From an uncultured virus (IMG/VR IMGVR_UViG_3300044825_003205) (lineage: Duplodnaviria; Heunggongvirae; Uroviricota; Caudoviricetes): a stretch of 20,000 nt of DNA. Shown here one piece after another: positions 790-20,000 of the stretch (position 1 is its first letter; every line of letters starts with the position of its first letter). The notes under the pieces are model-generated. The model made no database searches. It was not told where the DNA came from and worked only from the letters and a program-made list of their open reading frames with translations. The stretch spans positions 114,631-134,630 of the IMG/VR virus record IMGVR_UViG_3300044825_003205. The stretch is one strand, 5' to 3'. The translations under genes and the position numbers were made by a program.

Positions 790-1512
790 TTATTTTGATA
801 AATAATCGGATAATTTTTTCATTAAATCAATAGACTGGTTTACACTTGGAGCCGAAGCAATTTTATTCTTTTTTTCCTCCTCCAAATTTTCTTCATACTT
901 TTCTCTCTCAGTTACGTCGTCAAAGAGGTAAGCTCCTGGTGTGGAAGGTGATGAAACCAAATCGAAACAAATTAATTCAAAATCTTCTTGCACTTCATTT
1001 CTTTCACCTACTTTTTTTAAAGACCCTACTCCTCTTGAGGAAATTCCTAAAGTCACCCCTTGTCTTAATAGATTTGCTGCAATGTCTCCTTTGGTTGTTA
1101 CTACACCTCTTTCATGAAACCCTGGTGAAGTAAGTAATTTTAGTTTACCCATTAGGATATTTCTATCCCACCATATGTCTGTGATTAAATGCGATACTCT
1201 ATCTAAGTCTATCAAAGAAGATTCAGGATGATTAAGTTCAGAAGTTGAAAGTCCTTTCTTAATTATTTGTTTATACTTCTCGGCTTCTCTTTTGAGTATT
1301 GGTTCAGGATATGTTCTACCATTTCTATTTGGTGTATTATATTTCTGTAATACTGCATAAAATTCAAAAGGGTTTCTATAATCTACATTCTTAGACTCAT
1401 TCATAAACTTGAGGTTTATATCATCCAACGGAGATATATAACCTGCGTCCATTTCAACCAAAATTCCAAACCCTTGTTCGTGTGCTTCTAATATTCTGAG
1501 TTTTTTTTCCAT
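790..1512 (-). CDS. Prohead core protease (T4 gp21-like)
   Basis: Family motifs NRNGRTYP, ELNHP, IDLDRVSHLIT, LGISSRGVGS and FDLVSSPSTPGAY; lies in the portal/terminase module. Confidence 0.95.
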   Translation of the reverse strand: MEKKLRILEAHEQGFGILVEMDAGYISPLDDINLKFMNESKNVDYRNPFEFYAVLQKYNTPNRNGRTYPEPILKREAEKYKQIIKKGLSTSELNHPESSLIDLDRVSHLITDIWWDRNILMGKLKLLTSPGFHERGVVTTKGDIAANLLRQGVTLGISSRGVGSLKKVGERNEVQEDFELICFDLVSSPSTPGAYLFDDVTEREKYEENLEEEKKNKIASAPSVNQSIDLMKKLSDYLSK

Positions 1513-1548
1513 TAACTTTTTTAAATAAATATTTGTTTTAAGTAATAC

Positions 1549-1977
1549 TTACTTTTTCGTCAAAGAAAAATCGAAATACTGATTGTCCAAGATATTAGTT
1601 TTTTGAATGCTACGAACAATTCTTTTTACAGAATCTTTGATTTCATTAGACTTAAAATCAAGTTCTTTATCCAAATAAAGATTAATTTCTAAATTGAAAA
1701 ATGACTTTTTACCCGAAAAAATACCACTTGTTCTTAAGTCTAAATCTACAATTGAATTTTTACTAAATAAATTCGTATTGATTGAATCGAATACTGTGTG
1801 TTTGAGTTCTCTACTTAAATTGCCAACAACTCTATTCCAATTTTCTAAGTCTTGTTTGGGTGAAACCCATGATTGTATGTTAATGTAAAGTGATTTTAAG
1901 TTTTTGGAGTCTACCGTGCCATATGAAGATTTGAACGAGTTTGATAAATTCATCTTCACATTTTTTCCTTTTTTCAT
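1549..1977 (-). CDS. Hypothetical protein (142 aa)
   Basis: Intact ORF filling the gap between bS21 and the protease; no motif recognised. Confidence 0.75.
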   Translation of the reverse strand: MKKGKNVKMNLSNSFKSSYGTVDSKNLKSLYINIQSWVSPKQDLENWNRVVGNLSRELKHTVFDSINTNLFSKNSIVDLDLRTSGIFSGKKSFFNLEINLYLDKELDFKSNEIKDSVKRIVRSIQKTNILDNQYFDFSLTKK

Positions 1978-2008
1978 CTATGAACCATATTTCCAAAGTT
2001 TATTTTTA

Positions 2009-2040
2009 AAAAGATAACATATAACTTTATCTATGTCAAA
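2009..2040 (-). promoter_or_regulatory. Bacteroidota sigma70-like promoter for the 1549..1977 gene
   Basis: TTTG (2040-2037), 20-nt spacer, TATCTTTT (2016-2009); one mismatch to TAnnTTTG. Confidence 0.45.
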
Positions 2041-2057
2041 ATTTTAAGAATAAACTA

Positions 2058-2066
2058 TATATTTGT
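2058..2066 (+). promoter_or_regulatory. Candidate promoter element for bS21
   Basis: TATATTTG (2058-2065) matches the Bacteroidota -7 element TAnnTTTG and overlaps TATTTGT, a one-mismatch variant of TATTTAT. No clear -33 TTTG. Confidence 0.4.
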
Positions 2067-2071
2067 AATAT

Positions 2072-2257
2072 ATGTTGATAATAGAAATTAAAAATAATGG
2101 AGGGATAGAAAAAGCCCTGAAAACTTTGAAGTCCAAAGTAATTAAGACGAAGCAACAAAAATTACTCACGGAGAGAAAGGAGTATACTAAAAAGTCAGTC
2201 AAAGAAAGAAGTGAAAGACTCAAAGCGATATATGTTCAGAAAAAAAGAAACAATTAA
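2072..2257 (+). CDS. rpsU: Phage-encoded 30S ribosomal protein bS21 (Bacteroidota type)
   Basis: 61-aa basic protein MLIIEIK..IEKALK.LK.K..KT....L..RKEYTKKSV..R...LKAIYVQ follows the bS21 pattern, with the MLII start typical of Flavobacteriia. Confidence 0.9.
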   Translation: MLIIEIKNNGGIEKALKTLKSKVIKTKQQKLLTERKEYTKKSVKERSERLKAIYVQKKRNN

Positions 2258-2958
2258 ATTGATTCTTCAAGTTTTTTCAATCTCAAAAAATTAATTTGAT
2301 TGAACTTGTCATTCTGGATTTTGTCTATTGTTTCTTGAATCTTTTGTTTAGTCTCCAAATCTGTCTCGTTTTCTAAAACAGGGGAAAGTTTTTGTAAAGT
2401 TTTTTCTTTTAATGAATTGAACCTACTTTCTAAAGATTCACTATCTTCTTTGATTAATTCAAAAAATTCCTTTTTTGTATTTTCATCTAAAGATTCAATG
2501 TAATTTTGTACTGTTTGATTAGCAACTCTAACCATCGTACTCAAAGGGATGTTGATTGGTTTCTGATTTTTAATCTCGGATTCGCTGAGTGTTTTGTAAA
2601 GTTTTTTCTTCAAATTAACTCTTTCAGTTAAGTCTATTTTCTTATTCAAATATACTAAGTCATCAATATCCTGATACCTATTTTGAATTTTGGTTTCGGT
2701 CATCAACTTAGGTAGTTTAATATGTTGTAGAAGTGATTGTATCATTTGTATTCCTTCGTTCACAAATTCTTTAGCGTCTTGTTCATTCAAACCTTTTGGA
2801 TTCGACAACTCGTCATATAAAGAATATACTTTGGACAAATCTTTATTATTGAGAATATTCTGTTTGAATTCCATCAAACTTTTCTTGAAAGATTTTTCAT
2901 CTTTATAAGATTCTATCAAACTATTTTCTATTACCGATTTAATGAGCCCAAAAGTCAT
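2254..2958 (-). CDS. Hypothetical helical protein in the head module (234 aa)
   Basis: Intact K/E/L-rich ORF directly downstream of the portal gene, with its own TATTTAT element. Confidence 0.8.
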   Translation of the reverse strand: MTFGLIKSVIENSLIESYKDEKSFKKSLMEFKQNILNNKDLSKVYSLYDELSNPKGLNEQDAKEFVNEGIQMIQSLLQHIKLPKLMTETKIQNRYQDIDDLVYLNKKIDLTERVNLKKKLYKTLSESEIKNQKPINIPLSTMVRVANQTVQNYIESLDENTKKEFFELIKEDSESLESRFNSLKEKTLQKLSPVLENETDLETKQKIQETIDKIQNDKFNQINFLRLKKLEESI

Positions 2959-2982
2959 ATATTTGTGATTTGAATATAAATA

Positions 2983-4812
2983 TTACGAATTTAATAACTT
3001 ATCTAATTCTTTTTCGATTTCACCTAAAGAATCTTGTCCTTGGTTAAGTTCAAGGTAAGTATCACCCTTGAAAATGTTATTTTCTACTAAAATATTCATT
3101 CTCTCATCTTGTCCCTCAGGTGTCACCCCAGCAGGAGCGGTAATCTCGCCTTCAGGTTGTGGTTCAGGTGCTGGTGGTATAGTTGGTTCTTCCGTTCCCG
3201 CAAATGCCCCACCTAATTCAGGTGCCGCACCTGCAGTTGCCGCGGTTGATGTATTTCCACTTGATTGTGAATACAACTTATCAATAGTGTCAAATAATCC
3301 AGTTTTACTTATTACTGTTGGTGTTTGTTTGAGTTCTTCACCAATAGCTCTTTCCAATCTTTGTTGCATCAAATCTACTTTGATTTCTTCGTCAGACCAA
3401 CCAAATATATGTTTTTTTGCCCATGTACTAGATGTTGGCTGAATTCCATTTCCTGGGTCTAAAACCAAGTCTTTATACAAAAGAACTTTTTCTTTCCAAA
3501 CATCTATCTTTAATAAATCAGCTTGTGTAGAAGGATTAGTCAATCCAAGTGTAAAATTAGAAATTTCATCTTCGAACCCCAAAAGAAACAAATGAATGAT
3601 TGCAATCTTGTTCAATTCCTGAATCATGCATTTTTGAATTCTGTTGATTGTTCTTGCAAAACGAATGTCTTGAAGTGACAAGTTTTTACCATCACCCACT
3701 ACTTGTTCAAATCCCAAGAAAGCCTTTGGAACACGAAGAGCTGTCAAAAGTTTTTTCTGAATATATTCAATATCGGCAATTTCTGACAGGTTTTGTGCAC
3801 CAGCCAAAGTTTCAATTGGACTTGGGGATGCAGGGTCTCTTACAGGGACAAAATAATCTTGGTCTACCGCCATTTGATTAAACCTTAAATCTACGTTACC
3901 TGTTTTGGAATCAACGATTTGTTGTCTTTTGAATTTATCAGCAACACGATTTACATATGCCTCAACATCATTATCATCCATATTTCCCACAAAAATCTTA
4001 AAAATTCTTCTTTCAGGTGCTCGTGATGTTCTATAAATCATCATTGCGTCTTCAGATAAAAGCAGTTGTTTCCAAATTCTCCTAGCCTTCTCTAACATCG
4101 ATGTTCCGTAGGGAAGTTTCCTATCATCACCAAGTAATCTAAAGTGACCAACTTCCCACGTTTGAAAAACCATATTTTTAGATTTCCATTCAAAAGTCAA
4201 AGCTTTCTTTGCTTCGGACTTTCCTAAATTGACAGCATTTTTATCGGTAACCCCGATTTCATGTCTTTCAATTTCTATGTTTGGTAATTGTTGACATCCT
4301 ACAATACCCTTTTCAGGGTCTAATTTAAGATAAATAAAATTATCACCGAACTTACAAGTATTTCTTGTCCACATCGGTAAATTTGTGTTGATATCGAGTG
4401 TATTATTGAACAAATCTGCCAAAACCGCTTTTATTCTTTTCGATTCAGAATAAATTTGTAACATAAACCCATCTTCATTTACCGTAGTAGATTCCTCGGC
4501 ATATATGTCCAAAGCCGCAGATATTTCTGGCGTATACTCCATGGACTCATAATCATACGTAGCCGAAAGTCTTGAAGGTTCGTAAAATATTGCTTGAGTA
4601 TATAGATTGTTTTCAACTTTAGCCCATTGATTTGCAATATAATAAGTTTGTTGAGCTTGTAGTTTTTCTCTTTCGTATTCTCCTCTATCTTGTGTTCTTA
4701 ATAATTCTTTTTTGTCGAATTTAAAAGTTGGGTAATCCTGGCCCAAAAGAGAATTTGGACCAAACGCTTTACCTAATCTTTGCCAAATCGTCAGATTGTT
4801 ATTTTCCGCCAT
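2983..4812 (-). CDS. Portal protein (T4 gp20-like)
   Basis: Motifs PEISAALDIYAEE, WKQLLLSEDAMMIYRTSRAPERRIFKIFVGN, DYFVPVR, IETLAGAQNLSEIADIEYIQKKLLTALRVPK and DIRFARTINRIQ. Confidence 0.95.
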   Translation of the reverse strand: MAENNNLTIWQRLGKAFGPNSLLGQDYPTFKFDKKELLRTQDRGEYEREKLQAQQTYYIANQWAKVENNLYTQAIFYEPSRLSATYDYESMEYTPEISAALDIYAEESTTVNEDGFMLQIYSESKRIKAVLADLFNNTLDINTNLPMWTRNTCKFGDNFIYLKLDPEKGIVGCQQLPNIEIERHEIGVTDKNAVNLGKSEAKKALTFEWKSKNMVFQTWEVGHFRLLGDDRKLPYGTSMLEKARRIWKQLLLSEDAMMIYRTSRAPERRIFKIFVGNMDDNDVEAYVNRVADKFKRQQIVDSKTGNVDLRFNQMAVDQDYFVPVRDPASPSPIETLAGAQNLSEIADIEYIQKKLLTALRVPKAFLGFEQVVGDGKNLSLQDIRFARTINRIQKCMIQELNKIAIIHLFLLGFEDEISNFTLGLTNPSTQADLLKIDVWKEKVLLYKDLVLDPGNGIQPTSSTWAKKHIFGWSDEEIKVDLMQQRLERAIGEELKQTPTVISKTGLFDTIDKLYSQSSGNTSTAATAGAAPELGGAFAGTEEPTIPPAPEPQPEGEITAPAGVTPEGQDERMNILVENNIFKGDTYLELNQGQDSLGEIEKELDKLLNS

Positions 4813-11289: not shown

Positions 11290-11338
11290 TTAATTTTTTC
11301 TTTATAAATATACGAAACCACGAAATAAGTAGAAAATA

Positions 11339-12964
11339 TTATGCAAGATTCGAAGAACCTAACTTAGATTTGGATAAGACCATGTCACTTATGTTAGATA
11401 CAGATGAAACTATACTCCTTAATTTGGGTTCATATTCACCCGATGCATATCTATTTCCGTTAACATTTACGAAGTTTCTAAGTAAATCACCCGCTCTTTT
11501 TCCACCAGTCAAATATCTTCTAACCATCAAATCATAATATGCACAAACACCTTCCTGAACTGTTGAAAAATATTTGTTTTTCCCTGAGTCGGTGTTACCA
11601 ACATTGAACGGATTTTTAGTCCTTCTTGGTCTAACTGTTTGATTTTTTGACAGTCCTCCCTCTAACGCTAATTGAGCTAGTGCTAACTCAGGTGGCACGT
11701 ATCCTTGTGAAAAGTATCTTTTAGAACATTCGGCCATCATTTGTCCGTCGACACCAGCATTAGGATTTCGTTTATCAATGAAGTTTTGACAAATCTCAGC
11801 ATAAAGTTTGAAAGCTTCAGGGTCGTTCATATCCAAATAGGTAAAATTACCTTCCTTACCAAATTCTCCTGTAAATTTATTCAATTTAGATTCTGAAAAT
11901 TTGTTCAAAACTAACAAAGCTAAAAGATGTTTTAAATCTTCGGTTTTCATGACTCCATCTTTAATAAGACCTACCGAGTCTTGGAATTTTTCTATTGCTG
12001 CTTTAGTTTCTGGACCAAGTTTACCATCAATTCCCCATTTGGGTAATTTGAAATTCAGAAATTCAAGTCCATCTTGAATCATTCTTACGTCATCATCAAA
12101 TGGGATTTTCATTCCTGGCGTGTATTCAAAAGTTTTTTTAGAATTAACTAATTCTTTCAATTTCTTTAAAAAAGATGAATTCTCAACGGAGTCGATTATT
12201 TCTTTATTTTCCTTTTTGGTGTCTTGTTCATTCAAATGTTGTTCGACAGATAATTCTTTATCTTTGAGTTGATTAATTTTATCAAAAAGATTTTCGATGT
12301 GTTTTGACCTTCTCAAAAACTTGAATACTAAGTTTTCGTAAGACAACTCACCCCCTTTTTCTAAACCACACTTTCTATATTCTTTGAGTTTATCTTTAAT
12401 TGTTTCCAATTTTTCAATACCATCAGTTTCAGAATCTTTAATTGCCGTTTCTATTTTTTCAACCCAACTATCAATTTTATTCACCAAAACATTCTTGTCA
12501 ATTTTTTTAAAATCTTTCTTTGGAACATTAATCCACTCATCATTCGCAACAGAATAAACTGCACTACTCACATGGGATTCTTCTTTATCTTGAGCATAAA
12601 GTTCAACATCATATCCTAATATTTTAATATCGTGAGAATCGTTGAATATTCTCTTTTTCAAATCATATAATTCTTTATATGTTTCAGATTCTTTCTCGTA
12701 TTGTTGTAAATCTATTAAGATGTGTAAATCAAAGTCCGAAAAATTAGACCAGTTATAGTTTGCTAATGAACCAGTCAAGATAATATCTTCAACCACTACA
12801 TCCTCACCCAAATAATCAATAAATTCTTCGGCAATTCTTTCTAAAGCTTTTCTCACTTTAGGTTTCATTTTTGCATCCTTTGGGTCATCGTAGTTATCCC
12901 ATATCTTTGGATTCAATGTTTCTTGGAGAGAGAAACTTTTCAATATTTCTGTAAATTTTCCCAT
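11339..12964 (-). CDS. Fusion protein: Pol-beta-superfamily nucleotidyltransferase + peptidoglycan-binding domain + GH73/lysozyme-like hydrolase
   Basis: NTase motif IILTGS65-66...SD77FD79LHI...VE121LY. PG_binding_1-like DVRMIQDGL...GIDGKLGPETKAAIEKFQ...GL..DG (aa ~291-348). Hydrolase motifs ALAQLALE435GG, NPFNVG, FSTVQEGVCAYY and RYAS. Confidence 0.8.
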   Translation of the reverse strand: MGKFTEILKSFSLQETLNPKIWDNYDDPKDAKMKPKVRKALERIAEEFIDYLGEDVVVEDIILTGSLANYNWSNFSDFDLHILIDLQQYEKESETYKELYDLKKRIFNDSHDIKILGYDVELYAQDKEESHVSSAVYSVANDEWINVPKKDFKKIDKNVLVNKIDSWVEKIETAIKDSETDGIEKLETIKDKLKEYRKCGLEKGGELSYENLVFKFLRRSKHIENLFDKINQLKDKELSVEQHLNEQDTKKENKEIIDSVENSSFLKKLKELVNSKKTFEYTPGMKIPFDDDVRMIQDGLEFLNFKLPKWGIDGKLGPETKAAIEKFQDSVGLIKDGVMKTEDLKHLLALLVLNKFSESKLNKFTGEFGKEGNFTYLDMNDPEAFKLYAEICQNFIDKRNPNAGVDGQMMAECSKRYFSQGYVPPELALAQLALEGGLSKNQTVRPRRTKNPFNVGNTDSGKNKYFSTVQEGVCAYYDLMVRRYLTGGKRAGDLLRNFVNVNGNRYASGEYEPKLRSIVSSVSNISDMVLSKSKLGSSNLA

Positions 12965-12985
12965 ACCAAATAAATAGGCTAATTA

Positions 12986-13228
12986 TTATAGTTTTTTATA
13001 TTTGTGGTTCTTTGCAATTTCTGAAACGAAAAATTTACCCTGTGATTCTGCCATTCTGAATTGTGTGTATAATTTATGTGGTACTTCATCATACTCATAC
13101 TTAAGACCATTATTAAACTCCACAATCAGTTTTTTTGTTTCAGTATCGTATTCTGTTTTTTTTATGTTGGATGATTTGATTTCATTTATAATTTTTGTTC
13201 CAACGATTTCTTCTTTAATAACTCCCAT
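12986..13228 (-). CDS. KTSC domain protein
   Basis: SSNI...YD...KKLIVEFNNG..YEY..VP...Y..F..AESQGKFF...I is the KTSC signature. Confidence 0.9.
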   Translation of the reverse strand: MGVIKEEIVGTKIINEIKSSNIKKTEYDTETKKLIVEFNNGLKYEYDEVPHKLYTQFRMAESQGKFFVSEIAKNHKYKKL

Positions 13229-13863: not shown

Positions 13864-14283
13864 TTAGATGATGTTAATCTTATTTTTTCTTTTTTCAGTG
13901 TCCTTATTGTATTTCGGAATATAAACCGTAAGGATACCGTCAGAAATTGTTGCTTCAATTGTTGAAGAGTTATATGTGTTATTCAATTTAACTCTTTTAC
14001 TTATTGTTTTTTGTTTTTCAACTCCATTAACTTTATATTTTCTTAGTCCTTCCAACACTAATTCAGAACCCTCTACAGTAATTTCTAAATTTTCTTTGTT
14101 AAAACCTGGTACTTCAAAATGAAGATATGCTCCATCTTTTACGTGATTTATTTCATAATCCTCATCTTTTACATACTCTGTTTGCTCGTCAACTGGAACT
14201 AAGCGATAAGTACTTGTGTAATAAGTTGATGGAGAGTTGAAGAACTTGTCAAACATTTTGTTTAAATCATTTCCGTAAATCAT
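13864..14283 (-). CDS. Hsp20 / alpha-crystallin small heat-shock protein
   Basis: EVPGFNKENLEITVEGSELVLEG...IEATISDGILTVYIPK...KINI. Confidence 0.92.
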   Translation of the reverse strand: MIYGNDLNKMFDKFFNSPSTYYTSTYRLVPVDEQTEYVKDEDYEINHVKDGAYLHFEVPGFNKENLEITVEGSELVLEGLRKYKVNGVEKQKTISKRVKLNNTYNSSTIEATISDGILTVYIPKYNKDTEKRKNKINII

Positions 14284-14493: not shown

Positions 14494-16500
14494 ATGAATG
14501 AATTAATGGATGATGATGATAAGCAAACGAGTAAGAAAAAGAATACAGATAGTTCTACTCCCGTTTTAGATAATTTCAGTCGAGATTTAATCAAACTTGC
14601 TGAGATGGGTAAACTCGACCCCGTTATTGGTCGAGAAAAAGAAATTTTGAGAATTGCCCAAATTCTTTCAAGAAGAAAGAAAAATAATCCTGTAATAATT
14701 GGAGAACCTGGTTGTGGTAAAACCGCTATCGTAGAAGGATTGGCCATTAAGATTTATAATGGGGAGTGTCCGAGAAATTTAGTCGATAAAAGGATAGTCG
14801 CTTTAGACCTAACTTCAGTTGTTGCCGGTACAAAGTATCGTGGACAATTTGAAGAAAGGATGAAAGTCATCATGGAAGAACTACAACAAAACCCTAACAT
14901 TATTGTATTCATTGATGAAATACATACATTGGTTGGTTCAGGAAATGCTGCGGGGTCAATGGACGGTTCGAATATATTCAAACCCGCGTTAGCTCGTGGC
15001 GAACTCCAATGCATCGGAGCAACAACCTCTGATGAGTTCCGTAAATCATTCGAGAAAGATGGTGCATTGGAGAGAAGATTTCAAAAAGTTGTGGTTGACT
15101 CTGCAACTGTCGCTGAAACAATAGAAATATTGAAAAATGTTCGCGATAAGTATGAAACCTTCCATAAAGTAACCTACACTGATGAAATAATCGAAACTTG
15201 TGTAAAACTTGCTGACAAGTATATTACAGACAGAGAGTTTCCTGATAAGGCCTTCGATATTTTGGATGAAGTTGGTGCTAGAATGCAAACTGAACTCAAG
15301 GTTCCTGAAGTAATTGATGATTTGAAGAAGAAAGCAGCAGAACTCAGACAAATGAAGATGGACGTGGTTAAAAAACAAAACTACGAACAAGCCGCAGAAC
15401 TGAGGGATAAAGAAAAGAAACTTATCACAAAACTTGAAAGTGAAAAGAAGAAGTTTGAAGAACAACTTCAAAAGGAAAAACAACCAATCACTTTAGAAGA
15501 TGTTTATGATGTTGTTTCCACAATAACCAAAATTCCTGTTTCTAAAATGTCTGTAGACGATGTCAAAACTCTTGTCAACTTGGATAAAGAACTTGTGGGT
15601 AAAGTTATTGGTCAAGACGATGCTGTTCTCAAAATTGTCAAATCAATCAAAAGAAACAGACTTGGAATCAAAGACCCGAATAGACCTATTGGAACATTTG
15701 TATTCTTGGGCTCTACTGGTGTTGGTAAGACCTATTTGGCAAAACAACTCGCTAAAGAAATGTTTGGTAGTGAGGAATCTCTGATTAGGGTTGATATGAG
15801 TGAATACCAAGAGAAACACACTATTTCAAAATTGGTAGGTGCTCCTCCCGGATATGTTGGATATGACGAAGGTGGTCAACTCACTGAGAAGGTGAAAAAT
15901 AAACCTTACGCAGTAATACTTTTCGATGAGGTAGAAAAAGCTCATAAAGATATTTTCTCAATCCTCCTTCAAATCATGGATGATGGTTATGTTACCGATA
16001 GTTTGGGGCGTAAGATTAATTTTAAAAATACCCTCATCATCCTCACATCAAATTTGGGTGTAAAGAAATTTCAAGAATTCGGTGCAGGTATCGGGTTTGG
16101 AACTAACTCATATTCAAATGAGGAAGCGAAGAAACAAATCTTGATGAAAGAAATGAAAAATTTCTTCTCACCAGAATTTCTCAACAGAATAGATGATACC
16201 ATTATGTTTAATACACTATCTGAGGAAGATATCAAGAAAATAACCCGAATAGAGTTAGACAAATTGGTCAATAGATTGTCGGAAATGAAATACAAAATCA
16301 AATACAACGAGTCAGTGGTTGAGTATATTGCAAAAATTGGGTACGATAGTACCTATGGTGCTCGTCCAATGAAAAGAGCAATTCAGGATAAAGTCGAAGA
16401 CTTTTTATCTGAAGAAGTTCTTCTTGGTAAACTTAAAGAGAATACACAATATGTTCTCAAAGTGGAAGAAGAAACAGTTAAGATTACAAAGGGTAAGTAG
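14494..16500 (+). CDS. clpC: ClpC-like Hsp100 AAA+ ATPase lacking the N-terminal Clp-repeat domain
   Basis: NBD1 GEPGCGKT / IIVFIDEIH / AGTKYRGQFEE; short UVR-type middle domain KQNYEQAAELRD; NBD2 GSTGVGKT / VILFDEVEKAH / PPGYVG; ClpP-docking loop GIGF. Confidence 0.92.
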   Translation: MNELMDDDDKQTSKKKNTDSSTPVLDNFSRDLIKLAEMGKLDPVIGREKEILRIAQILSRRKKNNPVIIGEPGCGKTAIVEGLAIKIYNGECPRNLVDKRIVALDLTSVVAGTKYRGQFEERMKVIMEELQQNPNIIVFIDEIHTLVGSGNAAGSMDGSNIFKPALARGELQCIGATTSDEFRKSFEKDGALERRFQKVVVDSATVAETIEILKNVRDKYETFHKVTYTDEIIETCVKLADKYITDREFPDKAFDILDEVGARMQTELKVPEVIDDLKKKAAELRQMKMDVVKKQNYEQAAELRDKEKKLITKLESEKKKFEEQLQKEKQPITLEDVYDVVSTITKIPVSKMSVDDVKTLVNLDKELVGKVIGQDDAVLKIVKSIKRNRLGIKDPNRPIGTFVFLGSTGVGKTYLAKQLAKEMFGSEESLIRVDMSEYQEKHTISKLVGAPPGYVGYDEGGQLTEKVKNKPYAVILFDEVEKAHKDIFSILLQIMDDGYVTDSLGRKINFKNTLIILTSNLGVKKFQEFGAGIGFGTNSYSNEEAKKQILMKEMKNFFSPEFLNRIDDTIMFNTLSEEDIKKITRIELDKLVNRLSEMKYKIKYNESVVEYIAKIGYDSTYGARPMKRAIQDKVEDFLSEEVLLGKLKENTQYVLKVEEETVKITKGK

Positions 16501-16529: not shown

Positions 16530-16543
16530 ATATTTATCATAGA

Positions 16544-17194
16544 ATGAAAACAAACCTCAGAAAAATTATAAGGGAAGAACTTACGGTTTTGTCAAACTTT
16601 GATAAACTCATCAATTCTTTTAGAAGTGATTTCCCTCAAGACCTTCAAAATAAAGTTGACGGCATATCCTTATATGTAAAAAACTATGTCAGAGAGAATG
16701 GGTTCAATATAAAATTTCTTAATAGTTGCAGGACGGGATTCAAAGGAGTTAGAACTAATAATTTCATAATAATTTGTTCACCGATGCAAATTGAAAACAT
16801 TGGTGATTTTCTTTATACCATTTTTCATGAAATAAGACACGAAGAACAAATGGGTAAATTAAAAATTGATAACCCTTTAACAGGACAATTGGAAGATTTT
16901 GAAAAATTATTCGAAGATTATTGGAAATTAGAGTTGGATGCAGATGAATTTGCTAAGAAAAAAATATCAGAACTTGTTTTAAAATTTGGTATACCAATCG
17001 GCACCGCTAAACAAAATTTCAGACTATCTCCTTATGTCGAAAATTACCCAAGCACTTCTAAAATGGTGAAAAACTATATGAAAACGATAGTTGACGATAT
17101 TAAGAATATGAGAAAATCAGGGATGGAATACAATGATATTGCTGACCATCCTGTTGTCAAAAATCACTTGGAAAAATTAGAAGATTTCTTTTAA
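16544..17194 (+). CDS. Putative zincin-like metalloprotein (HExxH)
   Basis: TIFHEIRHEEQ followed about 27 aa later by LELDADEFA (ExxA third-ligand pattern); TATTTAT 6 nt upstream. Confidence 0.65.
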   Translation: MKTNLRKIIREELTVLSNFDKLINSFRSDFPQDLQNKVDGISLYVKNYVRENGFNIKFLNSCRTGFKGVRTNNFIIICSPMQIENIGDFLYTIFHEIRHEEQMGKLKIDNPLTGQLEDFEKLFEDYWKLELDADEFAKKKISELVLKFGIPIGTAKQNFRLSPYVENYPSTSKMVKNYMKTIVDDIKNMRKSGMEYNDIADHPVVKNHLEKLEDFF

Positions 17195-18048
17195 TCCCAA
17201 AGAGAGTAATTTTTCGAAGTATCTTTTTTCTCTTTGTAATGTAAATTGTAACCCAACAATTCTATCATTTTCTTACCAATCTCAATTCCATTATATACGT
17301 CTTCTATTACAACATATTCATTTCTGGTGTGATAGTTGTAATATCCTATTGAAAAATTGATACAAGAAAAATCAAAAGATTTTCTCAAAGCATAAACATC
17401 TGTATATGGGTGAACCATGTATTCCATAAAGTTTTGATTCATAGATTCTGTAAGAACCTTATCGCAAACTTTGAAAAAATCAGAATCTCTGTCAAATAGA
17501 ACTTGTCCAAAACATTTTTCTGTGACCATCCAATTTTCAGGTGCATCGAACTGAATTGCATAACCTACGTTAGCAAAAAATCCTGTGTTAGCTTTCAATG
17601 AACCATGACACCCTGTTTCTTCGGAAACGAAAAATGCCGCTTTCAAATTCGGTAATTCTTTTAATAGAGTTAGACACGCAAAAACACCACACTTATCGTC
17701 TCCACCAATTCCTGTTGGTTTACCATTACCATCTAATGCAAATAGAGAACTTTTTAATTCATCCTGAGCATTTGGAAGTTCAGATTCTTGAATGAAAATT
17801 TCATTTATTTCGTGTACGGTATCAGTGTGGGAGACCACGCAAGGATAGAAAAAATTTTCATCTTTCACGACGTTATCTGTCTTTGTTGCATAAACGTTTT
17901 TGTATGCATCAACAAAAAATTCTATATTGTTTTCAGTCAACCAAGTCGTCAAGTATTCAACCATTCTATCTTCTTTATAAGTTTTGGTGGGAACACTCAA
18001 AACTTCTTTGAGAAGTTGTAAATTATAGTTCATATCTAATATTTTCAC
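17191..18048 (-). CDS. M20/M28/M42-clan zinc peptidase or hydrolase
   Basis: SHTDTVH, GGDDKCG, SEETGCHGS, QFD and YYNYHT..E metal-ligand motifs. The real start is probably the ATG at 18033, because the GTG at 18048 overlaps a -7 element. Confidence 0.88.
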   Translation of the reverse strand: MKILDMNYNLQLLKEVLSVPTKTYKEDRMVEYLTTWLTENNIEFFVDAYKNVYATKTDNVVKDENFFYPCVVSHTDTVHEINEIFIQESELPNAQDELKSSLFALDGNGKPTGIGGDDKCGVFACLTLLKELPNLKAAFFVSEETGCHGSLKANTGFFANVGYAIQFDAPENWMVTEKCFGQVLFDRDSDFFKVCDKVLTESMNQNFMEYMVHPYTDVYALRKSFDFSCINFSIGYYNYHTRNEYVVIEDVYNGIEIGKKMIELLGYNLHYKEKKDTSKNYSLWD

Positions 18049-19499: not shown

Positions 19500-19922
19500 G
19501 GGGAAGACATGGAATCGACTGCAATATGTAGGTACAAGTGGCATGTCGGAGCTGAATTAACTCCGTAAAAACTGATTTGAAAAACAAATGGCAATACTTT
19601 TGCTAAGATGTCTGCTCTCGGTTTGATGAGAGAAGCATCTGTTGTTGCTGCGTAATCGTAGAGAACAACACTCGGGTCGGTAAGGACATATACCTAGGAA
19701 CAGAAGTCCATGAGGTTTAACAAATACCGCGTGATTCAGTTCAGGAAATTTGTTTGGTGGTGTTTTCGGTTCAAACCAACTCAATAGGAACCGACCACGG
19801 TTGTTAGTTCTAATGGAAAAATAAGAACTATCTATTTGTTGATTGAGAACTAATCAAATAAACATGTAGTCATTTGTGGTTGCTATTGCAAGACGAGGGT
19901 TCGAGTCCCTCCTTCTCCACCA
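19500..19922 (+). ncRNA. ssrA: tmRNA (one-piece, 423 nt)
   Basis: 5' GGGGAAG pairs with 3' CTTCTCC-ACCA and has the G3:U Ala identity pair. Also GGAATCGAC D-loop region, T arm GAGGG-TTCGAGT-CCCTC, long-range helices TGCAATA/TATTGCA and ACAAGTGGC/GTCATTTGT, and a tag ORF 19590-19655 ending VVAA-TAA with the stop in a hairpin loop. Confidence 0.95.
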
Positions 19923-19930
19923 TTTTTTTT

Positions 19931-20000
19931 GGCCTCGTCGTCTAATGGTTAGGACGCTACCCTTTCACGGTAGAGATTTCAGTTCGACTCTGTGCGAGGC
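19931..20000 (+). tRNA. tRNA-Glu (UUC), 3' end cut by the window edge
   Basis: Acceptor GGCCTCG / CGAGGC.., D arm CGTC-TAATGGTTAG-GACG, anticodon arm CTACC-CTTTCAC-GGTAG, T loop TTCGACT. Confidence 0.9.

Follow-up and report, generated by a model that had tools for sequence, protein, structure and literature searches.

This analysis revealed that a single gene in a 20,000-nucleotide stretch of DNA from a T4-like jumbo phage of fresh water (positions 114,631 to 134,630 of IMG/VR record IMGVR_UViG_3300044825_003205, hereafter the window) encodes a genuine and conserved protein that combines two enzymes. The open reading frame (ORF) of 541 amino acids was found to comprise three parts: a Pol-beta nucleotidyltransferase (NTase) at residues 1-241, a disordered linker, and a PG_binding_1 peptidoglycan-binding domain followed by a GH73-type glycosidase. 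All three domains had been called in an earlier sequence-only reading of this DNA, and each call held when the domains were examined separately with Pfam, AlphaFold models and fold searches. The strings quoted in that reading were all located in the translation, with SLQE at residues 12-15, GS at 65-66, DFD at 77-79, LSVEQHLNEQ at 238-247 and RYAS at 505-508. We tentatively favour the interpretation that the protein is a late-made and probably packaged precursor, which would be cut by the T4-type prohead protease of the phage into two proteins acting at entry; we regard this as plausible rather than probable.

The fusion is not an artefact of assembly. Fifteen proteins of 541 residues, with 92-97% identity, are present in other assemblies, and the whole ORF was found on five IMG/VR contigs with 73-100% identity. 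The linker region (12200-12260) is bridged in contigs of three further studies, and the fusion is therefore continuous in independent contigs. A joint from 11315 to 12588 in a contig of one of these studies (X6) was distrusted, as one of its sides has only 22 letters. In an alignment of 36 full-length relatives with 46-97% identity, which is the basis of all residue counts out of 36 given below, the catalytic residues of both halves were found to be intact and invariant, namely G65-S66, D77, D79 and E121 in the NTase and E435 and Y506-A507 in the glycosidase. A Kyte-Doolittle scan of the whole protein revealed no hydrophobic segment, which means that the ORF has no membrane anchor and, as had been stated from the sequence, no signal peptide. 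The architecture has already been met by annotation pipelines, the automatic JGI annotations of 541-residue relatives naming both domains, and we found no published study of it: full-text literature searches, for which most subscription journals were outside reach, returned no paper describing the combination of an NTase with a wall lysin. The accessible part of a survey of jumbo phages (PMC7824862) treats other NTases (RlaP) and mentions the KTSC domain, not the present NTase family.

With regard to the N-terminal half, sequence comparisons and structural models indicate a Pol-beta nucleotidyltransferase which is restricted to viruses, has its catalytic triad intact and is predicted to be active. 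Its match to Pfam NTP_transf_2 (residues 46-114, E = 8.1e-4) lies just under the cut-off, with 20.2 bits against 21, which is passed by the relatives P0095 (28.0), P0117 (25.1) and P0123 (25.3). In PHROGs, residues 12-239 fall in phrog_36119 (E = 1.2e-38), which is annotated as 'unknown function'. The AlphaFold models, which were built from alignments of relatives, gave a two-lobed Pol-beta NTase for residues 1-250 with a predicted local distance difference test score (pLDDT) of 88.6. The best Foldseek rows for this part were AAD(9) (E = 1.5e-4), CdnE (E = 2.1e-4) and ANT(6), followed by TENT5, LinB and KNTase, all with a low global template modelling (TM) score of ~0.25. In VIA, a fold search independent of Foldseek, the NTase core matched the minimal NTases 2rff (Z 7.4, root-mean-square deviation (rmsd) 4.3, 105 residues aligned) and 1ylq (Z 6.8), and MNT was among the matches of both searches. 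These moderate scores support the minimal NTase alpha/beta fold. The second lobe matched only generic helical bundles in VIA, and the alignment of relatives shows it to be lined by many invariant basic residues.

The N-terminal half thus shares with the two-lobed Pol-beta NTases (AAD(9), ANT(6), LinB, KNTase, CdnE, MNT and TENT5) the hG[GS] and DxD motifs, the third carboxylate and the arrangement of a core with a helical lobe. It differs from them in that the matches are weak (Foldseek E 1.5e-4 at best, TM ~0.25, VIA Z at most 7.4) and in that its family is virus-only and has conserved residues of its own. A named subfamily was sought and none could be assigned: NCBIfam gave no match for the N-terminal half, PADLOC gave weak minimal-NTase matches only (E 1e-5 to 0.02), a PDB sequence-profile search returned DrrA as its sole match (E = 0.038), and an Atlas look-up led to virus-only, unnamed clusters.

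The C-terminal half is, on sequence and model, a wall-cutting module in which a peptidoglycan-binding domain precedes a GH73-type glycosidase with Glu435 as candidate catalytic residue. Pfam PG_binding_1 was found above its cut-off at residues 291-339 (E = 9.4e-8, 32.6 bits against 23), whereas Glucosaminidase (GH73; residues 421-521, E = 6.2e-4) remained below, with 20.9 bits against 30.2; for this reason the domain is named GH73-type and not a scored member of the family. The cut-off is passed by the relatives P0095 (30.8) and P0072 (31.0). The model of residues 251-541 has a pLDDT of 90.7. VIA matched the three-helix fold of the peptidoglycan-binding domain with Z scores of 11.4-12.9 (CtpB 12.9, SleB 11.8, phiKZ gp144 11.4, and also SleC), and the glycosidase to LytB (7pj3; Z 11.2, rmsd 3.3 Å over 139 residues), Ecd09610 (Z 10.4), TM0633 (Z 8.3) and FlgJ (Z 6.8). 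In a weak alignment with FlgJ (E = 0.44), E435 falls on the Glu in AQAALESGWG and RYAS is paired with GYATD, and the correspondence is therefore one of motifs only. The ORF accordingly resembles the GH73 N-acetylglucosaminidases LytB, FlgJ, Ecd09610 and TM0633 in fold, and FlgJ in the Glu of AQxxLE(S/G)G and in YA(T/S), but its Pfam score is below the cut-off and no second catalytic carboxylate was identified. The C-terminal tail (residues 531-541) recurs in free-standing lysins of the same family.

The NTase usually occurs on its own, as a protein of ~243 residues which occupies the same genomic slot as the fusion. A search among short proteins yielded 4178 homologues of residues 1-245, the best 120 of which have 241-291 residues and 64-70% identity, while a free-standing NTase used as query against proteins of at least 434 residues gave 530 matches, with PG_binding_1 in all 120 listed; both totals are counts of cluster representatives in the searched collection. 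In a search with an alignment of short forms, 76 of the best 80 viral loci were found to encode an NTase of 240-273 residues and four a fusion. The genes around the NTase are largely the same in these 80 loci, with g80 present in 78, g409 in 76, g131 and a ClpB-like gene in 75 each, g281 and g434 in 74 each and g302 in 57. More distant free-standing homologues were found in Lak megaphages, other huge phages, Maribacter phages, Caulobacter phage Cr30 and cluster C cyanophages, where they sit among non-structural genes; a Lak homologue gave no continuous reading frame under translation table 11.

Among the 120 long forms listed, some add M23 or GH73 to PG_binding_1, and the fusion partners seen are all wall-binding or wall-cutting modules. 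Pfam architectures in chosen variants, in which PGB denotes the peptidoglycan-binding domain, include NTase-PGB-GH73, NTase-GH73, NTase-M23-PGB, NTase-PGB-M23-GH73 and NTase-PGB-M23-GH73-VanY, as well as NTase-PGB with C-terminal parts outside Pfam families. The N domain of the ORF is 90% identical to that of P0068, whose partner is an M23 module. A quick maximum-likelihood tree of 53 N domains shows the two forms interleaved: parsimony requires nine changes between the fused and the free state, at least three of them forced by well-supported branches, and one deep, well-supported clade of six NTases is all fused. The sequence comparisons indicate that, in the present lineage and repeatedly elsewhere, the NTase gene has acquired an interchangeable lysin module at its 3' end.

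The C-terminal module also exists apart from the NTase, as small free lysins, behind a leader of 60-90 residues with M23 or M15, and inside proteins of 1000-1900 residues. Two complete relatives with a free NTase (G007 and G008) carry a glycosidase of 47-50% identity in a small gene elsewhere on the record, which adjoins a cyclophilin-like gene (read by eye from the sequence) among small non-structural genes. The complete relatives also carry further peptidoglycan-binding, M23 and lysozyme genes, the kinds and numbers of which differ across G006-G008. A lysin gene standing beside free NTase genes was sought as well; only four of the 80 loci have the C module within 5 kb, and all four are fusions.

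Two further observations concern the members of these families. The NTase-PG-binding fusions P0076 (504 residues), P0099/P0117 (567-568 residues) and P0398 (595 residues) have C-terminal parts of 150-250 residues that match no Pfam family, and these may be unrecognised wall-hydrolase domains. The free-standing lysins (P0246-P0388, L104:6557-7300 and L105:6315-7061) exhibit two recurring N-terminal motifs, one like MKxxLKEELxRIHEITYGK and one like MxKKxKVRLTEQELxDL, and a hydrophobic-x-Glu motif lies within residues 3-16 in 31 of 60 free-standing lysins of the family, a pattern that is reminiscent of short protease-trimmed targeting peptides.

At the junction between the two halves, the last NTase helix in the model spans residues 222-238, and L238, S239 and E241 are invariant, after which the N-terminal part of the linker varies in length and sequence. 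A hydrophobic-x-Glu motif at residues 244-246 was kept in 33 of the 36 aligned fusions. The protein has nine motifs of this kind, and none of the other eight is kept in more than 23 relatives. When 164 fused proteins of at least 400 residues were examined, the junction motif was found in 160, of which 144 have hydrophobic-x-Glu at the exact spacing; in several of the other 16 it is displaced by a few residues. The sequence-only reading had asked whether homologues stop near residue 240, and thousands of them do, as free-standing proteins: 101 of the best 120 end exactly at the equivalent of E246. A cut after E246 would thus give an NTase product of precisely the free-standing length.

The residue at the equivalent of position 246 also differs between the two forms. 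In the fused proteins it is Glu in 145 and Asp in three of 160, whereas the best 120 free-standing forms divide mainly between Asp (56) and Glu (53). When distinct junction strings were counted, the figures were 86 of 95 for fused and 24 of 41 for free forms (Fisher p = 6e-5, relatedness ignored). A requirement for Glu only where more chain follows is the pattern expected from a Glu-specific protease, but the enrichment of Glu in fused forms is suggestive only, because kinship is uncorrected and both samples are lists of top matches.

The window encodes a candidate for such a protease, a gp21-like enzyme of the T4 type. T4 gp21 cuts gp23 at L-T-E|A, after Glu65, and prefers Leu/Ile-x-Glu. The capsid protein of the present phage (599 residues; G000:C1 111676-113475, L008:3676-5475, minus strand, outside the window) has I-N-E|A aligned with this L-T-E|A site, and L244-N-E246 both resembles the phage's own capsid site and lies in an exposed segment with a pLDDT below 50. 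The gp21-like motif that had been noticed in the quoted linker is a conserved feature, as the counts of 33/36 and 144/160 show. The second site proposed at the same time, in the N-terminal SLQE, did not survive: its hydrophobic-x-Glu (L13-Q-E15) is kept in only 7 of 36 relatives, and the N-terminus is folded into the domain, residues 3-9 being helical in the model and residues 1-10 having a mean pLDDT of 83. No N-terminal capsid-targeting peptide ending in a cleavage site was evident in the ORF, either in the alignment of 36 relatives or in the AlphaFold model.

The genomic context suggests when the protein is made. On the 134,630-base record, 117 ORFs were called and scanned with Pfam and PHROGs. 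They include structural genes (gp23-type capsid, T4 portal, Peptidase_S77 prohead protease, large terminase, sheath, tube, gp25- and gp6-like baseplate), replication genes (gp32 and a family B polymerase), and many glycosyltransferases, collagen-like fibres, a ClpB-like ATPase, Hsp20 and ribosomal protein S21. By this gene content the source is a T4-like myovirus. The record is estimated to be ~41% complete, and related records with the same gene order, rated complete, have 309-326 kb, so that the record represents a fragment of a jumbo phage. The sequencing runs which hold the sequence are mostly freshwater metagenomes, and no RNA datasets are among those listed.

The sequence-only reading had pointed to a TATTTAT element at the gene, and this proved to be a genuine motif of gene starts. 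Of the 71 copies in the record, 28 stand 4-36 nt ahead of an ORF start on the same strand, against ~1.3 expected by area, and for every other ordering of these seven bases the share at gene starts is 10% or less. The genes which it precedes are mostly structural (fibres, sheath, tube, gp25-like, adaptor, portal and protease), and the NTase-lysin ORF is therefore probably a late gene. In the window, the element occurs at 798, 1525, 2976, 4843, 11304, 12970 and 19436 on the minus strand and at 16531 on the plus strand. It often stands 4-18 nt from the ATG, which would leave almost no leader if it were a promoter box. A gap of 21 nt separates the ORF from the KTSC-domain gene g80 directly upstream, which suggests co-transcription. 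As a general partner of the NTase, the KTSC neighbour was rejected, since it has no likeness to the upstream genes of Maribacter phage Molly or S-CRM01.

One experimental datum touches the NTase family, and it comes from a distant, free-standing member in the cyanophage S-CREM2. According to Table 3 of the report on this phage (PMC10665884), ORF156 (126012-126725) was detected in CsCl-purified virions with six unique peptides and 15.2% coverage, and its neighbours ORF154 and ORF155 are also in the virion proteome. We matched ORF156 by its coordinates to gp156 of the S-CREM2 GenBank record, which aligns with residues 4-241 of the present ORF at 31% identity (E = 7e-36). It differs from the ORF in that it is free-standing, has 237 residues, ends in ...DKDLSLK without an acidic tail and has GG for GS, and its gene is not adjacent to head genes. 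The same table includes, just ahead of the baseplate spike, the giant proteins ORF208 and ORF209, which are encoded by genes of 4.7 and 4.4 kb, carry an endolysin annotation and are abundant in the virion proteome, with 73 and 71 peptides (PMC10665884). When the full-length NTase-lysin protein was used in a tblastn search, those Synechococcus phage records that were among the matches listed aligned with its N-terminal half only.

Taken together, these observations are consistent with a sequence of five steps. The protein would be made late, together with the structural genes, and would be taken up into the particle. The prohead protease encoded at 790-1512 would then cut after Glu246, at the hydrophobic-x-Glu motif in the disordered linker, and the products would be an NTase of free-standing length and a separate PG-binding/GH73 lysin. 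On the following infection, the lysin would make a local opening in the murein, and some host target would be nucleotidylylated by the NTase. Both components of this scheme are of known kinds, as the finding combines a modular lysin with protease-processed phage cargo. T4 Alt and the internal proteins of T4 are head-packaged cargo trimmed by gp21, and this cargo carries an N-terminal targeting peptide. The ORF resembles it in the T4-type prohead protease encoded nearby, in its exposed hydrophobic-x-Glu and in a possible action on the host at entry, but it is a putative cargo only and has no evident N-terminal targeting peptide; to our knowledge, no T4 cargo carries a wall hydrolase. In virion-borne lysins such as T7 gp16, PRD1 P15 and phi6 P5, a wall hydrolase is present in the particle with non-lytic parts on the same polypeptide. 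Their folds and phage types are unrelated to the ORF, and we know of none of the three that is joined to a nucleotidyltransferase.

Several points weigh against the favoured precursor. Packaging and cleavage are inferred for the ORF and for every fusion. The hydrophobic-x-acidic tail is also present in free forms, which need no cut, and its conservation could serve the NTase itself, while the contrast between Glu and Asp ignores phylogeny and compares the best matches to two queries. The N-terminus has neither a conserved protease site nor a targeting peptide and is folded into the domain. The placement of the PG-binding domain N-terminal to the catalytic domain is the layout of jumbo-phage endolysins, phiKZ gp144 being the top Foldseek row. 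Head-internal proteins of T4-like phages are delivered to the cytoplasm, and a head-packaged lysin would therefore have no obvious route to the murein. The NTase homologues of S-CRM01 and Maribacter phage Molly lie among non-structural genes and have no tail, and the S-CREM2 detection is modest and concerns a homologue of only 31% identity.

A strong alternative, which we consider somewhat less likely than the precursor, is an uncleaved, holin-dependent endolysin in the style of phiKZ gp144. The protein would accumulate late in the cytoplasm and reach the murein once a holin-type lesion opens, and its NTase would act on a cytoplasmic target of its own or merely ride along. Given that canonical endolysins have no signal peptide and wait in the cytoplasm, the premise of the sequence-only reading that an NTase of the cytoplasm cannot be reconciled with a wall hydrolase was not upheld, and the lack of a signal peptide or membrane segment is what an endolysin would show. 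phiKZ gp144 and EL gp188 share with the ORF a PG_binding_1 domain before the catalytic domain, the lack of a signal peptide and an origin in a large myovirus, and gp144 (3bkh) is the top Foldseek row for the C-terminal part, its PG-binding domain matching with Z 11.4 in VIA. They differ in that the catalytic domain of the ORF is GH73-like and not a lytic transglycosylase, and in that an NTase of 246 residues precedes the module; we know of no proteolytic release of gp144. The free lysins of G007 and G008, with catalytic domains of 47-50% identity, lie in small non-structural gene regions, as would suit an endolysin, and such an enzyme would call for no new assumption on how a head-packaged lysin gets to the murein.

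No other muralytic gene was recognised on the record, in the 116 other ORFs with Pfam or in the PHROG scans, and the latter gave no lysis-category match in this ~41% complete record. The argument that the ORF must be the endolysin because it is the only lysin of the phage was nevertheless rejected, since the record is incomplete and complete relatives carry several wall-hydrolase genes. A hydropathy scan found no holin-like or membrane-protein neighbour of the ORF. An endolysin would also leave unexplained the strict junction Glu of the fused forms and the virion detection of a family member, and relatives with three catalytic domains (M23, GH73 and VanY) look, from general knowledge, more like virion-borne lysins.

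An incidental fusion, in which mobile lysin modules simply insert at the 3' end of the NTase gene and the two parts, functionally unlinked, share late expression only, appears improbable. The high mobility of lysin modules, which differ in number and kind across G006-G008, and the different C modules carried by closely related N domains would both be expected from it. The association is nevertheless old and maintained, as the deep, well-supported clade of six fused proteins indicates; the catalytic residues of both halves are invariant, and all 120 long forms listed have a wall-binding partner and nothing else.

It is more unlikely still that the NTase controls the lysin, by nucleotidylylating (for example AMPylating) the lysin module or a partner while ATP lasts and so keeping it inactive until the energy collapses. 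Exclusive pairing with wall modules among the 120 long forms listed would fit, as would the likeness in fold to MNT antitoxins, which AMPylate their toxins, the invariant Tyr506 inside the glycosidase motif and a weak likeness to AMPylases (DrrA, E = 0.038; SidM_N, E = 0.0013 in P0068). However, every AMPylase match is marginal, the catalytic domains of the partners have unrelated folds (GH73, M23 and VanY) with no common acceptor surface evident among them, some fusions have no PG-binding domain, the linker is variable and disordered, and the family consists mostly of free-standing NTases whose genes are remote from lysin genes. Least likely of all is a sabotage of wall synthesis, in which the NTase would modify a cytoplasmic murein precursor or amino sugar, the PG-binding domain would aid capture and the glycosidase would cut the weakened wall: the exclusive pairing with PG-binding modules in the 120 listed long forms, the best Foldseek rows, which nucleotidylylate hydroxyls of amino-sugar antibiotics (AAD(9), ANT(6), LinB and KNTase), and the invariant basic residues lining the helical lobe would suit it, but the fold matches are weak (TM ~0.25) and point equally to RNA- and nucleotide-directed NTases, free-standing NTases have no PG-binding domain, and we recall no precedent.

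The precursor can be placed in a wider scheme, for which we have low confidence. The NTase of ~243 residues could be a widespread and hitherto unrecognised class of virion-delivered nucleotidylating effectors in aquatic T4-like and giant phages, analogous in function to T4 Alt, which in about a tenth of lineages would be made as a precursor with a wall-cutting module and split by the capsid protease after a conserved Glu. If so, one gene would supply both the breach of the wall and the first host-modifying enzyme. If the precursor is real, a nucleotidyltransferase would join the short list of enzymes injected by tailed phages, and a wall hydrolase would be produced by capsid-protease processing; if the protein is an endolysin, its architecture would be unusual among lysins and of practical interest to enzyme engineers. 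The fusion is the first functional handle on a large virus-only NTase family without assigned function, because its partners are only wall modules (in the 120 forms listed), its junction resembles a capsid-protease site and one relative is found in virions. An abundant orphan enzyme family thereby gains a testable context.

Table 1. Features of the NTase-lysin gene and its surroundings, in window coordinates
Feature	Position	Strand	Basis
Whole ORF (P0001)	11339..12964	-	541 residues + stop, ATG start
Pol-beta-type NTase domain, residues 1-241	12242..12964	-	core residues ~12-150, helical bundle residues ~154-241; PHROGs, Pfam, AF2, fold matches
hG[GS]...DxD nucleotide/metal motif, G65-S66 to D77-F-D79	12728..12772	-	invariant 36/36 and 53/53
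E121, third catalytic carboxylate	12602..12604	-	invariant 36/36; on strand 118-126 of model
Linker, residues 242-262	12179..12241	-	alignment indels; pLDDT <50 for residues 242-250
L244-N245-E246, conserved hydrophobic-x-Glu, candidate prohead-protease site	12227..12235	-	end point of free-standing homologues
Peptidoglycan-binding domain, structural span residues 263-356, Pfam core 291-339	11897..12178	-	Pfam and VIA
GH73-type (lysozyme-like) glycosidase domain, residues 371-530	11375..11854	-	VIA fold matches, Pfam below cut-off
E435, candidate catalytic Glu in PPELALAQLALEGG	11660..11662	-	invariant 36/36; aligns with FlgJ Glu
Y506-A507 of RYAS motif	11444..11449	-	invariant 36/36; aligns with FlgJ GYATD
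C-terminal tail, residues 531-541	11342..11374	-	similar tails in P0246, P0247, P0251 and G007/G008 lysins
Contig bridging 12200-12260, X5 record 13	12181-12921
Contig bridging 12200-12260, X6 record 20	11881-12248
Contig bridging 12200-12260, X4 record 4	12185-12338
TATTTAT gene-start element	12970..12976	-	5 nt upstream of ORF ATG
g80, KTSC-domain protein, 80 residues, directly upstream of NTase ORF	12986..13228	-	Pfam KTSC E 9.7e-17; beside NTase in 78/80 loci
T4-type prohead protease (gp21-like), candidate processing enzyme	790..1512	-	Peptidase_S77 E 1.7e-22; phrog_207 E 1.4e-43
tmRNA, phage-encoded	19500-19922	+	Rfam 106.4 bits; tag peptide GNTFAKMSALGLMREASVVAA; encoded CCA end
tRNA-Glu(UUC), directly after tmRNA	19931-20000	+	runs into end of record

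The window also encodes a tmRNA and a tRNA-Glu, and a tRNA array may continue past the end of the record. The two genes lie 6.5 kb from the NTase, and the CCA end of the tmRNA is encoded. With regard to the repair of tRNA or tmRNA ends, which had been suggested as one role of the NTase, no evidence tying the NTase to these RNAs was found.

Further features of the record were noted in passing. Near the start of the record, a region of ~3 kb (G000:C1 ~1050-4200, L002) holds tiny ORFs only (49-57 residues), and neither a tRNA nor an Rfam match at gathering score was found there. A gene for ribosomal protein S21 (2072-2257, plus strand, Pfam E = 5.5e-9) is flanked by the genes for the portal and the prohead protease, to which it runs in opposite orientation. 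Hsp20 (13864-14283, minus strand), a ClpB-like double AAA+ ATPase (14494-16500, plus strand) and an M20-family peptidase (17191-18048, minus strand) form a cluster immediately upstream of the head module that is conserved in relatives, the ClpB-like gene being present in 75 and the M20 peptidase in 54 of the 80 loci.

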